Shown: piece by piece, positions 31,339-40,337 of the stretch | Position numbering within the stretch: the first letter of the stretch is position 1 | How the letters are laid out: each line of letters begins with the position of its first letter | The notes under the pieces: model-generated | Told to the model about the DNA's origin: nothing | The model's database searches: none | What the model saw: the letters and a program-made list of their open reading frames with translations, nothing else | Translations under genes and position numbers: made by a program | NCBI RefSeq assembly: GCF_054482525.1 | Contig: NZ_CM137006.1 | Direction: 5' to 3' (one strand) | Length of the DNA stretch: 64,000 bases

Positions 31339-31391
31339 AACTCAATCCTTAGTCTGATGAACTTGACGTCGGGCGTTGTCGCTTTCGCTTA

Positions 31392-31520
31392 CCTTTCGTT
31401 TCATTTCACTTGGTGATGTCTTTCGTTGATTAAAATCTATAGAAAAGAAACTGAAAGTTCAATGGAGAAAAAAGAAATAAAACGAAATTTGTGATCATTG
31501 AAAGAAAAGACAAGGGAAGA
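31392..31520. promoter_or_regulatory. agaS promoter with AgaR-operator-like repeats
   Basis: cctttcgtttcatttcacttgg fits the AgaR operator pattern; further ctttcgtt/aaacgaaa copies nearby. Confidence 0.6.
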
Positions 31521-31557: not shown

Positions 31558-31615
31558 TTGCCGGATGCGGCGTACCGTAGGTCGGATCAGACGCGTTAGC
31601 GTCGCATCCGACACC
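31558..31615. repeat. REP palindromic element pair
   Basis: gccggatgcggcgtaccgtaggtcggatcagacgcgttagcgtcgcatccgacac. Confidence 0.75.
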
Positions 31616-31688
31616 GCTGCACAGATCAAAAAGAAAGAAAAAGAAAGGCCTTACGGGGGAAGTGAAGGCCCAATAATGGAGCAAACCA

Positions 31689-35424: not shown

Positions 35425-36705
35425 TTATTGGCCTTCACAGGCTGTGTGGTACTGCGCCAGGATGTCCTGAATATGGTTGATAATGAGTTCCCGTGGCGTT
35501 GGCTGCAGCTCGCCGGAGCGAACTTTCACGTATTGCAGCGGCAAATACTGGCTGATGAGCGGTAGCGGAATTGGTGAATCCGCCAGATTACGAACCAGAT
35601 GAGCGAAAGCGTCATCAATCTGGCTGTCCGGCCAGTAATAGCGCACGCGATCCGAGTAGCTATAACCACGTGCCAGACGACGCGCGTTGCCGTCACCGTG
35701 GTAGTGGCTTTGCCAGTATTCCGGGCGGTCGAGCATCACGTTTTCCAGTACCTGACGCAGACCGGAACAGGCTTTCGCTGGCACCAGTTCTTCTTCAATC
35801 GCCGCCAGAGAGAACAGAGCTTCACGCAGGGCGAAGGTCAGCGCCGGGCCAACTTTCAGAATGGCAAAGTGGTCAATCACCAGCTGGCGCAGCGATTGCG
35901 GCGTTTGATAATCGGTAGAGTGCGCTTCGAAAATCAGCGTTTCGTAGTTTTCGACCATCTGGCTTAAGGCGCTCGCTTTGGCGGGCTGATAATCAATAAC
36001 GTTGGTGTGATCGAATTCGACGCCGGGTTGTACCACCAGAGCAATGATGCGTGGCCAGATGGCACTCAGACCTTGCTTTTCAAAGGCGTGACGATGGGCT
36101 TCCAGCGTGGCGCGGGCGGCATCCGGCGTGGTGACCGCCAGCTCGCTTAAGGTTTCATGCGCGCCGCCAGGTACCGGCACTTCGGTACCAATGACATACT
36201 CCAAATCGGCTTCGCCAAAGTGTTCACGACAGGTTTCTTCCGCCACTTTCGCCAGACGTGCGGCGCGTTCAGCCACGATGTCATCAGTTAAGGGAACCGG
36301 ATCATCCTGACAGGACATGCTGCAATCAAGGTGAATTTTTTTGAATCCTGCCGCCACGTAGCTTTTAATCAAATCATCGGCATTGGCCATTGCCTGAGCG
36401 GCAGGCAGGTTTTGCCAGCGGTTTGGACCCAGATGGTCGCCACCCAGAATCAACGCATCCTGTGGGAAATTCAATGAGTCGGCGAGCTGACAAACAAAGC
36501 CGCGAAAATCGGCGGGCGTCATTCCGGTATAGCCGCCGAACTGGTCTACCTGATTGGAGGTTGCTTCAATCAGTAACGGCGTTTGGTTTGCACTGGCGTA
36601 GCGGATTGCAGCCTCCAGCACCAGCGGATGTGCGGAACAAACGGCATAAATTCCATTTGTTTTGCCCGCTTTGTGCTGTCTCACCATTTCTGTCAGATGT
36701 TTCAC
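35425..36705 (-). CDS. kbaZ: Tagatose-bisphosphate aldolase non-catalytic subunit KbaZ
   Basis: 426-aa ORF, GatZ/KbaZ family. Confidence 0.92.
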
Positions 36706-36953
36706 TTTCCTCTCCAGTTCAGATTACTGCGATATTAATCTTTCGTTTTGTTTCAGTTGATACTGCGCCATGGTGAGATAAAAATAAAACGAAAGATAAT
36801 GGTTTTCTGATCTGATTCACAAAAGAAACATAATGAAAGCCACTGAAACGAGAGTAGCTTGCGCCAATGGGTAAGGTGGGCTTGCATTTGCTTAATAGAA
36901 AGGCGTTAATAGGCAAAACGAAATGAAACGAAAGTTTTACGAAAGGACTTACT
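36706..36953. promoter_or_regulatory. Divergent kbaZ/agaR promoter region with multiple AgaR-operator-like repeats
   Basis: ctttcgttttgtttcagttga plus inverted copies aaaacgaaag and aaacgaaatgaaacgaaagtttt. Confidence 0.6.
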
Positions 36954-37763
36954 ATGAGTAATACCGACGCTTCAGGTGAGAAGCGAATGACAGGCACCAG
37001 CGAGCGACGAGAACAGATCATTCAGCGTCTGCGACAGCAAGGGAGTGTGCAGGTTAACGATCTGTCGGCATTGTATGGCGTATCTACTGTGACGATCCGC
37101 AACGATCTGGCGTTTCTGGAAAAGCAGGGGATCGCTGTGCGTGCCTATGGCGGCGCGTTGATCTGCGATAGCACGACGCCGTCAGTCGAGCCATCAGTGG
37201 AAGATAAAAGCGCGCTGAATACCGCAATGAAACGCAGCGTTGCGAAAGCTGCCGTTGAGTTGATTCAGCCAGGTCATCGGGTGATCCTCGATTCCGGGAC
37301 CACCACTTTTGAGATTGCTCGTCTGATGCGCAAGCACACTGACGTAATTGCGATGACCAACGGTATGAACGTAGCTAATGCGTTGCTGGAAGCGGAAGGC
37401 GTTGAGCTGCTGATGACCGGCGGGCATTTGCGCCGTCAGTCGCAATCTTTTTACGGCGATCAGGCTGAACAATCGCTGCAAAATTACCACTTCGATATGC
37501 TGTTTCTTGGCGTAGATGCGATCGATCTGGAGCGCGGCGTCAGCACGCATAATGAAGATGAAGCCCGTTTAAACCGCCGGATGTGCGAAGTTGCGGAACG
37601 GATCATCGTGGTCACCGATTCCAGTAAGTTCAATCGTTCCAGTTTACATAAGATCATTGATACTCAACGTATCGACATGATCATTGTTGATGAAGGCATT
37701 CCTGCGGATAGTCTGGAAGGACTGCGAAAGGCTGGGGTTGAAGTGATTCTGGTCGGGGAGTGA
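36954..37763 (+). CDS. agaR: DeoR-family repressor AgaR
   Basis: 269 aa, N-terminal HTH ([23 protein letters not shown]) and DeoR C-terminal domain. Confidence 0.93.
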
Positions 37764-37817: not shown

Positions 37818-38282
37818 TCAATGGGTTTCTTCTGTCTCTCGGGTGAGGGTTTCCCAGTCGGCAGGAGGATGTCCTCTTTTTAACATTTTGCTGAATACGG
37901 TATAGGCATCTGTTTTTTTACCGTAGGTGCGCAGAGTGTTTTCATCGTTCATCCATCCCAGAATGATGACTTTCTCTTTTTCACTATAACGAAAGAAGAG
38001 ACGATAACGACCAGCACCAAATTTTACCCGTGACCAGTCTTTATTTTTCCCAGAGCCTAACGACTTGCCATGACGGAATGCCGGTGATGATGGATTGACC
38101 GTGATATGCTCCTCAATCACTTTATGGACTACCGCCAATAACTTTGTGGCGGCTTTTCTCTGATAATTTTCAGGATCTTTTCCCTTTAATGTCTCGACTT
38201 CGGCAACTAAAGCGTCGTAGGTTTCCTGAAAACAGGGATGAGCATATAGCGCCCAACCATTAACCCTTTGTGGAAAATCCAT
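37818..38282 (-). CDS. yhaV: Toxin YhaV (ribosome-dependent mRNA interferase)
   Basis: 154-aa ORF; start overlaps prlF stop. Confidence 0.9.
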   Translation of the reverse strand: MDFPQRVNGWALYAHPCFQETYDALVAEVETLKGKDPENYQRKAATKLLAVVHKVIEEHITVNPSSPAFRHGKSLGSGKNKDWSRVKFGAGRYRLFFRYSEKEKVIILGWMNDENTLRTYGKKTDAYTVFSKMLKRGHPPADWETLTRETEETH

Positions 38283-38617
38283 TATTCGTCGTCGCCAATC
38301 TCATCATCAATGTTGACGTCCATGCCAGCGACAAGTTTCTTTCCTTGTTGAATGTTGAATGGACGAGTTTTTTGCGGGTTGTTCTGGATATCTGCATCCA
38401 GAAAACGCAAAAATGCATTCATAGTATGATCCTCCTGTTCATCTCCCAGTCGGCACATAAATACTTGCCCACCAGGCAGAATTTCGTAATGAATGCTGTC
38501 CTGGCCTGGCTTCAGTTTTAAGGCCTCACGCACTGGCGCGGGGATAGTTGTTTGTCCGCGTATCGTGACCTTTGATTCAGTGGTCAGTACAGCGTGAGAG
38601 CGAGCATTAGCGGGCAT
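38282..38617 (-). CDS. prlF: Antitoxin PrlF (SohA), AbrB/SpoVT-type
   Basis: 111-aa ORF MPANARSHAVLTTESKVTIRGQTTIPAPVREAL…, acidic C-terminus. Confidence 0.9.
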   Translation of the reverse strand: MPANARSHAVLTTESKVTIRGQTTIPAPVREALKLKPGQDSIHYEILPGGQVFMCRLGDEQEDHTMNAFLRFLDADIQNNPQKTRPFNIQQGKKLVAGMDVNIDDEIGDDE

Positions 38618-38765: not shown

Positions 38766-40337
38766 TCAGGTCACCGGTGCCGGGTTAAACACCGCCAGCT
38801 GGTTATGCAGTCCCCATTGATCTGAGAAGGTTTTCTTCTTCCCGCTGGCGACGTCGAGAATAAAGTGGAACAACTTCCAGCCCACCTCTTCAATAGTTTC
38901 TTCGCCGGTAGCGATGGTGCCCGCATTAATATCCATTAAATCAAACCAGCGGTTCGCCAGCTCGGTGCGGGTCGCCATTTTAATGACGGGTACCGCCATC
39001 AGGCCGTATGGCGTACCACGACCGGTCGTAAACACTTGCACGGTGATACCCGAAGCCACCTGTTGCGTGCCACAGACAAAATCGCTGGCTGGCGTCGCGG
39101 CGTAAATTAATCCGCGTTTAGTCGGGCGTTGACCGGGCGACAGCACTTCAACAATTGCACTTTTACCCGATTTAGCAATGGAGCCGAGCGCTTTCTCCAC
39201 CACGTTTGCCAGACCGCCTTTCTTGTTGCCCGGCGAAGGGTTGGCGCTGCGGTCGGTTTTTCCCATATTGAGATAGTTATCGTACCACTCCATCTCCTCC
39301 AGCAGCCGTTTGCCGACCTCTTCGTTCACTGCGCGTGGTGTCAGCAGATGGATCGCGTCACGCACTTCCGTGACTTCTGAAAACATCACCGTTGCGCCGC
39401 AGCGCACCAGTAGATCAGACGCATAGCCAACCGCCGGGTTTGCCGTTACGCCAGAAAACGCATCGCTACCGCCGCACTGCATGCCGACAACCAGTTCTGA
39501 AGCCGGACAGGTTTCTCGCTGCCGTTGATTCAGTTTGTGCAAATGGCGTTCGGCGACCTGCAAAATATCCTAGACCATGGACTGAAAACCGACATGCTTT
39601 TCATCCTGCAAACTGACAATGCTGGCGCTTTCTACTGGAATAGCTTGCACATCATCCGTTCCAGTCAGCAGGCGCTCAGGCTGCAACTTTTCACAACCCA
39701 GACCAATCACCATTACTTCGCCGCCAAAGTTAGGGTTCAGCGAAATATTGTGGATGGTACGAATAGGCACAACTGCCGCCGGTGCGTTAATCGCCACGCC
39801 ACAACCGTACAAATGATTCAGCCCCACCACGCCATCGACGTTCGGGTATTTCGGTAGCAGATCGCGTTCAATGATTTTTACTACATAGTCCACCACGCCT
39901 GCCACACAGTGGACGCTGGTGGTGATGCCGAGCAGGTTTTTGGTGCCCACGCTGCCATCGGCATTGCGATAGCCCTCAAAGGTGTAACCTTCAAGCGGCG
40001 GTAAGGGTTCCGGGACTTTGGTTGCAAGTGGCAGCGTGTGTAACGGCGGCGCTTCCGGTAGTACAACCATTGATTCGTCGATCCAGCTTCCGCGTGGGAT
40101 TGCGCGCACGGCGTAACCAATCACTTCGCCATAACGAATAATTTCACCATTAGCCGGAATGTCCAGCAATGCGACTTTATGCCCCTGGGGAATATGTTCA
40201 ATTAATTCCAGCCCATCCGGAAAACGCGTTCCTGCTTTCAGGCCATTATCATTAACAATAATTGCCACATTATCTGTGTCGTGAACTTTTATATAAAACG
40301 CAGTTGGCGTTTCTTGTCTGATTTCGATGTTGGCCAT
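38766..40337 (-). pseudogene. garD: Galactarate dehydratase GarD interrupted by an in-frame amber codon
   Basis: Two collinear ORFs in the same frame; minus-strand reading …[16 protein letters not shown]… with TAG at 39570..39572; no frameshift. Confidence 0.8.

Follow-up and report, generated by a model that had tools for sequence, protein, structure and literature searches.

A conserved array of probable AgaR operators between the divergent kbaZ and agaR genes

Introduction

In a stretch of 64,000 nucleotides analysed here as a whole (hereafter the window), the divergently transcribed genes kbaZ and agaR are separated by exactly 248 bp, within which a CTTTCGTTT-type motif is repeated several times. 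Which protein reads these repeats, and which of the promoters on either side of them would it control? The original prediction, made from the nucleotide sequence, had noticed one such motif near each gene and found both consistent with operators through which AgaR represses its own gene as well as the kbaZ-agaVWEFA transcript; a 100-aa open reading frame of the same region was judged most likely spurious.

The operators of Escherichia coli K-12 AgaR were reportedly described by Ray & Larson in 2004 (Mol Microbiol 51:813), together with autoregulation, repression of the kbaZ and agaS promoters and the promoter names PR, PZ and PS; a comparative-genomics extension of the aga/gam regulon is said to have been given by Leyn et al. 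in 2012 (J Biol Chem 287:28047).

Later papers, which refer to Ray & Larson 2004 and to Leyn et al. [quoted passage not shown] In the third, Aga is reported to induce lacZ fusions of Pz and Ps, and agaA and agaS, which are Aga-induced, to become constitutive in E. coli C upon deletion of agaR (PMC3668189); a further paper links loss-of-function agaR mutations to higher expression of the Aga PTS (PMC9628945).

Results

The control region and its genes

The kbaZ/agaR intergenic region, whose G+C content is 37% as compared with 51% for the window, corresponds to positions 3278666..3278913 of E. coli K-12, with 244/248 bases identical to MG1655. Because none of the four substitutions (36768, 36840, 36864 and 36872) touches an operator core, the CRP site or a promoter hexamer as described below (Table 1), experiments performed in K-12 are directly applicable to the control region of the window. 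The 461 bp around it match E. coli strain N3 with 100% identity; among complete E. coli genomes, 5,318 carry the locus, almost all of them with 95-99% identity to this segment; on the identical DNA around the region, RefSeq annotates agaR and kbaZ alone.

The assignment of the flanking genes agrees with the original prediction. AgaR is matched by its NCBIfam equivalog model, as well as, at lower scores, by several models of paralogues; KbaZ is likewise matched by its own equivalog model, and on the 3' side of kbaZ the genes agaV, agaW, agaE, agaF and agaA, the last encoding a deacetylase, form an intact run that is followed by agaS and kbaY. Unlike the K-12 aga/gam locus, which carries an agaW'-agaA' deletion, the window strain has a complete agaVWEFA block that is presumably functional; since this block is intact, the repressed transcript would comprise all of kbaZ-agaVWEFA, like that of E. 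coli C and O157:H7.

Some further observations concern the neighbourhood of agaR. In the 269-aa AgaR protein, the match to the NCBIfam AgaR equivalog model sets in at residue 12 and leaves out residues 1-11 (36954-36986, the first 11 codons); the upstream ATG (36954) and its AAGGA Shine-Dalgarno sequence are kept in all 20 aligned genera, and the long form of AgaR that starts at 36954 is probably the real one. Directly downstream of agaR, as in K-12, lies the prlF-yhaV antitoxin/toxin pair (37818-38617, − strand), which is unrelated to the operators. Beyond it, the galactarate dehydratase gene garD (38766-40337, − strand) is split by an in-frame stop codon at 39570-39572 into open reading frames of 255 aa and 265 aa; segment 39480-39660 of garD is identical in 0/5,362 complete E. 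coli genomes and its best match has one mismatch, so that the stop is either a nonsense mutation private to this strain or an error of sequencing.

Table 1 Features of the kbaZ/agaR control region, its flanking genes and the agaS-upstream region; operators are those predicted from motif matches
Feature	Coordinates	Strand	Sequence or type	Remarks
Predicted AgaR operator upstream of agaS	31389..31412	+	TTACCTTTCGTTTCATTTCACTTG	PWM 30.8 bits; zero mismatches to 24-bp consensus
Second predicted AgaR operator upstream of agaS	31469..31492	-	ACAAATTTCGTTTTATTTCTTTTT	PWM 24.7 bits; one mismatch to consensus
kbaZ (agaZ)	35425..36705	-		NCBIfam KbaZ equivalog, 898 bits; first gene of kbaZ-agaVWEFA
kbaZ/agaR control region	36706..36953			Between kbaZ GTG (36705, - strand) and agaR ATG (36954, + strand)
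100-aa open reading frame, spurious	36719..37021	-		Antisense to control region and agaR 5' end; without Pfam family; unannotated in RefSeq
Predicted AgaR operator S1	36737..36760	+	AATCTTTCGTTTTGTTTCAGTTGA	PWM 31.5 bits; 24-bp consensus with 3 mismatches; core 15-mer exact
Putative -10 hexamer of kbaZ promoter PZ	36760..36765	-	CAGTAT	C-A-n-n-A-T invariant in 79/79, positions 3-4 vary; outside S1
Predicted AgaR operator S2	36776..36799	-	TTATCTTTCGTTTTATTTTTATCT	PWM 30.3 bits; core 15-mer exact; quoted in part as aaaacgaaagata...
CRP-like site	36806..36821		TCTGA-TCTGAT-TCACA	One mismatch to TGTGA-N6-TCACA
Predicted AgaR operator S3	36820..36843	-	GTGGCTTTCATTATGTTTCTTTTG / aaaagaaacataatgaaag	PWM 25.8 bits; 2 mismatches to 24-bp consensus; core 15-mer exact
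Spacer, sequence free but length constrained	36843..36878			36 bp; between PZ-side sites and PR promoter; identity 0.30
Putative agaR promoter PR	36882..36911	+	TTGCAT-17-GTTAAT	-35 at 36882-36887; GTTAAT at 36905-36910
Half-site-like block	36894..36903	-	atagaaagg (CCTTTCT on - strand)	In spacer of putative agaR promoter
Predicted AgaR operator S4	36914..36938	-	AAAACTTTCGTTTCATTTCGTTTTG	PWM 33.0 bits, best in window; 24-bp consensus with zero mismatches (36914-36937)
Extra half-site	36941..36946	-	CTTTCG (cgaaag on + strand)	Overlaps agaR Shine-Dalgarno AAGGA; GAAAGG partly conserved
agaR	36954..37763	+		DeoR/GlpR-family repressor; Pfam HTH_DeoR and DeoRC; NCBIfam AgaR equivalog; RefSeq

Enrichment of the repeated motif

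When compared with 2000 shuffles of its own AT-rich sequence that preserve the dinucleotides, the intergenic DNA contains five copies of TTTCRTTT (0.13 expected), five matches with at most one mismatch to the 15-mer core CTTTCRTTWYRTTTY (0.01 expected) and six occurrences of CTTTC (1.0 expected), counts that were reached in 0/2000 shuffles. Across the whole window TTTCRTTT is found 12 times, which is not significant by itself (8.2 expected), and five of these copies belong to the kbaZ/agaR region and three to the agaA/agaS intergenic region. With at most one mismatch, the 15-mer core matches the 64 kb seven times (0.29 expected), and the 24-bp sequence WRMMTTTCRTTTYRTTTYNYTTKK, which we take to be the AgaR consensus of Ray & Larson 2004 and EcoCyc, is matched six times with up to three mismatches (0.15 expected); all of these matches, including the only two without any mismatch to the 24-bp consensus (36914-36937 and 31390-31413), are located in the two aga control regions.

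A position weight matrix (PWM) was built from 299 orthologous S1-S4 sites. Its near-invariant positions are C-T-T-T-C at 0-4, T-T at 6-7 and T-T-T-C/T at 11-14, so that the motif amounts to two direct copies of (C/A)TTTC in a 10-bp register, between which a weaker copy is placed (CTTTC-RTTWY-RTTTC, 5/10-bp register). Scanning the 64 kb with this matrix yields six sites at 24.7-33 bits, namely S1-S4, whose scores are not independent as the window's own copies are partly included in the training set, and two sites upstream of agaS, which are absent from the training set and therefore score independently. The next-best match (14.7 bits) also lies upstream of agaS, and nothing in the 64 kb exceeds 8 bits beyond the kbaZ/agaR and agaS-upstream regions. 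A motif scan, which the original prediction had proposed as a check, hence confines strong matches to two control regions, with four AgaR-type sites in the kbaZ/agaR region, two or three upstream of agaS and none elsewhere.

The weak third match upstream of agaS is a pyrimidine-rich run, GGCCTTTCTTTTTCTTTCTTTTTG (31627-31651, − strand), which directly follows the agaA stop codon, has three mismatches to the 24-bp consensus and is an uncertain candidate operator. Between agaA and the agaS promoter there is also a GC-rich, imperfectly palindromic stretch (…ggtgtcggatgcgacgctaacgcgtctgatccgacctacggtacgccgcatccggcaa…, ~31560-31625) with the appearance of a REP/BIME-like extragenic repeat.

Operator sites and half-sites

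The kbaZ/agaR region contains four full sites of 24 bp that follow the pattern wwAT-CTTTC-RTTWY-RTTTC-nTTT, of which S1 is inverted relative to S2, S3 and S4, and together with S2 forms an inverted repeat with 94% complementarity. S2 escapes the 24-bp consensus pattern (at most three mismatches) and was picked up by the 15-mer core and the PWM; its position 36785 varies between A and G, as is allowed by the R position of the motif. S3 abuts the CRP-like site on the upstream side of the latter. The two strings quoted in the original prediction are both present, ctttcgttttgtttcagttga on the + strand at 36740-36760, at a distance of 35 bp from the GTG of kbaZ (36705), and aaaacgaaatgaaacgaaagttttacgaaagg at 36915-36946, 8 bp ahead of the ATG of agaR (36954), but their number was too low a count, with S2, the full S3 site and the CRP-like site left out.

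S4 has two overlapping registers. Its sequence was adopted as AgaR site by a synthetic-promoter study, which reports AgaR-dependent repression measured with it and lists the site in Table S3 as 'CTTTCGTTTCATTTTCGTTT' from PkbaZ (PMC8667592). The sole match to this entry in the window, at 36915-36934, lies inside S4 and differs from it at 3/20 positions, apparently owing to a one-base slip in the table.

In addition to the full sites, the region contains less complete copies. Conservation of GAAAGG at the half-site next to agaR, with which the second quoted string ends, may simply reflect the ribosome-binding site. The half-site-like block within the putative agaR promoter scores below 8 bits, although the surrounding 36894-36913 is conserved at 0.88; as an operator it is uncertain. 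A degenerate half-site in the otherwise unconserved spacer, TGAAACGAGAGT (36844-36855), is 92% identical to the S4 core TGAAACGAAAGT; the string 'tgaaacgagagt' at these positions was rejected as an operator, scoring below 8 bits and not being conserved outside E. coli and E. albertii.

CRP-like site and promoters

The agaZ promoter was reportedly shown by Ray & Larson (2004) to depend on cAMP-CRP. The window contains five matches to TGTGA-N6-TCACA (1.7 expected), a number that alone is not above chance; the one found between S2 and S3, with one mismatch, has a core, GATCTGTTTCACA, that is nearly invariant in 79 orthologues, and a weak left half-site, which in E. coli is TCTGA but among its relatives mostly TCCGA.

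A generic sigma-70 promoter scan of the region found no promoter in the kbaZ direction and picked up neither of the elements proposed here, whose -10 hexamers, CAGTAT for kbaZ and GTTAAT for agaR, are weak matches. CAGTAT is read as a -10 element because an invariant C-A-n-n-A-T with free positions 3-4 is the pattern expected of one. It would set the kbaZ transcription start at ~36753 and, provided that CAnnAT (36765-36760) is the -10, the CRP-like site at ~-60.5/-61.5. Relative to such a start, S1 would extend from ~-7 to +17 and overlap it, the -35 region would lie under S2, and S3 would be situated just upstream of CRP. On the agaR side, TTGC(A/T)T (36882-36887) and TTAATA (36906-36911) are invariant in 79/79 orthologues, and the distance between the -35 and -10 anchors is fixed in 66 loci; transcription would start at ~36917 and thus under S4, with the register of the hexamer being uncertain.

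Other arrangements were considered and set aside. Two + strand candidates of the sigma-70 scan were rejected as main agaR promoter: TTGATA-17-AAAAAT (36757-36785), since the G of TTGATA is poorly conserved in contrast to the invariant TTGCAT/TTAATA nearer agaR, and GTGAGA-16-GATAAT (36773-36800), most of whose GTGAGA is poorly conserved. A class II CRP arrangement of PZ with TATTTT (36786-36781) as -10 is less likely, as its A2 is replaced by G in 15/79 orthologues, tracking the degeneracy of the AgaR motif and not a -10 requirement. A terminator-like hairpin (36860-36837) lies within the unconserved spacer and was taken as a chance occurrence. Separately, in a genomic SELEX study, the tables for heat-shock and extracytoplasmic sigma factors include the agaR/kbaZ spacer (K-12 coordinate 3276944 in the paper's numbering) as a place where RNA polymerase holoenzymes containing a minor sigma factor bind (PMC5493296).

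Conservation and spacing across Enterobacterales

A scan with the AgaR protein, restricted to one genome per species, collected 80 loci from Escherichia, Salmonella (arizonae, diarizonae), Citrobacter, Klebsiella, Enterobacter, Kluyvera, Yersinia, Serratia, Ewingella, Cedecea, Pantoea and Mixta; a kbaZ gene is divergently upstream of agaR in 79 of these loci. The 79 distinct intergenic sequences were aligned and scored by mean identity to the window base. The original prediction had named a lack of conservation in related genomes as what would speak against it; the sites instead form a classic phylogenetic footprint, with mean identities of 0.84 (S1), 0.94 (S2), 0.85 (S3) and 0.88 (S4), next to 0.84 for the CRP-like site, as compared with 0.30 for the spacer (36843-36878) and 0.45-0.50 for third codon positions of agaR and kbaZ, which served as neutral references in the same loci. 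The CTTTC cores are 98-99% invariant over the 299 orthologous sites, beside an adjoining spacer at random-level identity. The 15-mer core is found 3-5 times per region in 75/79 orthologous regions, which amounts to 319 matches in 19.7 kb of orthologous intergenic DNA versus 10 in 424 kb of flanking DNA.

From genus to genus, the distances between the elements are also maintained, with a tolerance of 1-2 bp. The intergenic region measures 245-251 bp in 77/79 loci, and anchor distances are 43 bp between S1 and S2 (64 loci), 27 bp between S2 and the CRP-like site (71 loci) and 16 bp between the latter and S3 (75 loci), while S3 is separated from S4 by 95-98 bp and from the agaR -35 element by 54-57 bp (~70 loci). 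In the window, the cores are spaced centre-to-centre by 41, 44 and 95-96 bp, near whole helical turns. Such constancy of spacer and intergenic length suggests a geometric constraint, for example cooperative binding or looping.

Alternative explanations

Could the repeats be a chance by-product of AT-rich, T-tract-rich DNA, as found in UP elements or curved DNA, without any sequence-specific role? The low G+C content of the region and the unremarkable total of TTTCRTTT in the window would be in line with this, but the explanation is hardly credible, being refuted both by the composition-preserving shuffles, none of which reproduced the counts, and by the near invariance of the CTTTC cores beside a spacer that drifts at random level. 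Nor are the conserved blocks likely to be parts of a coding or structured-RNA element, such as the 100-aa antisense open reading frame, a leader peptide or a cis-regulatory RNA in the kbaZ/agaR 5' UTR. Although the frame spans the region, it is open in Escherichia only, has at least two in-frame stops in 73/79 orthologues (with the frame anchored at the start) and begins with ATG in just 35/79, and the original prediction was right to call it spurious. Similarly, a scan of the region against Rfam returned only sub-threshold matches, to KatA_thermometer and Phe_leader, with E-values of 0.3-0.9 and 21-23 bits as opposed to gathering scores of 55-111. Conservation comes in separate stretches of 15-24 bp, in which a single motif recurs in either orientation, as is typical of operators, making a coding or RNA element extremely unlikely.

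Real and conserved motifs might still have another main binder, be it a DeoR-family paralogue (GatR or GlpR, for example) or a nucleoid protein that prefers T-tracts, with AgaR acting elsewhere. E. coli has many DeoR/GlpR paralogues, models of which match AgaR at lower scores, and the identity of a binding protein cannot be read from sequence alone. Yet within 64 kb the motif occurs only before agaR/kbaZ and agaS, and it accompanies agaR in 75/79 genomes; moreover, three papers ascribe binding at exactly these promoters to AgaR (PMC4694137, PMC3668189, PMC5018945), and the AgaR-dependent repression reported in the synthetic-promoter study was obtained with the S4 sequence (PMC8667592). We regard a different main regulator as very unlikely.

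Discussion

The repeats between kbaZ and agaR are very probably operators of the AgaR encoded alongside, and the region that contains them would control the aga/gam regulon of E. coli, because they recur only upstream of agaS within 64 kb, are kept beside agaR in 75/79 loci and belong to a region that is almost identical to that of K-12. The autoregulation and the repression of kbaZ-agaVWEFA put forward by the original prediction are supported by this distribution, conservation and K-12 identity, as well as by AgaR binding as published in the papers cited above.

A working model can be drawn from these elements. In the absence of inducer, AgaR would occupy S1-S4 and exclude or trap RNA polymerase at both divergent promoters, leading to repression of kbaZ-agaVWEFA and of agaR itself; as to which site blocks which step, we infer that AgaR at S1-S3 would block the CRP-dependent kbaZ promoter, and AgaR at S4 that of agaR. 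Through the same motif upstream of agaS, agaS-kbaY-agaBCDI would be repressed as well. During growth on N-acetylgalactosamine (GalNAc) or galactosamine (GalN), an inducer made from these sugars would release AgaR, after which cAMP-CRP would activate the kbaZ promoter.

The maintenance of intergenic length (245-251 bp) and S3-S4 distance (95-98 bp), despite random-level identity of the spacer, also invites a more speculative reading, whereby S1-S4 and the half-sites, as opposed to being occupied independently, might constitute a single nucleoprotein complex of fixed geometry, in which an AgaR oligomer would bridge S1-S3 and S4 over the spacer 36843-36878 and one loop would shut both divergent promoters. 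We consider this possible but doubtful; if true, it would extend known AgaR biology without introducing a new kind of system.

In terms of discovery, there is little value in a control region that essentially has the K-12 sequence and whose operators were published in 2004 and extended in 2012: the feature is an already characterised AgaR operator array, correctly recognised but ordinary. What the analysis yields is a clean control-region annotation for a strain with complete agaVWEFA, from which the spurious 100-aa open reading frame is removed, and a record of an Enterobacterales-wide architecture, made of four operators, a CRP site and promoter elements with spacing kept to within 1-2 bp, that hints at a geometry-dependent repression complex.

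Compared with known systems, the closest counterpart is the set of AgaR operators of the K-12 aga/gam locus, which is the same locus with the same motif and the same three target regions (agaR, kbaZ and agaS), and whose control region has no substantive difference from that of the window. The GlpR and DeoR systems of E. coli employ several operators per control region and an oligomeric repressor, with cooperative binding or looping; AgaR belongs to the same family (HTH_DeoR, DeoRC), and its operators are likewise spread at fixed spacing, over ~200 bp. In contrast to the palindromic DeoR operator, AgaR half-sites are direct repeats of (C/A)TTTC, and the length-constrained spacer may hint at looping by AgaR. 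Finally, the CRP-like site, 51 bp upstream of the centre of the CAnnAT hexamer, resembles that of class I CRP promoters of the lac type, where CRP binds near -61.5, a placement that would apply to PZ if its start is as proposed.
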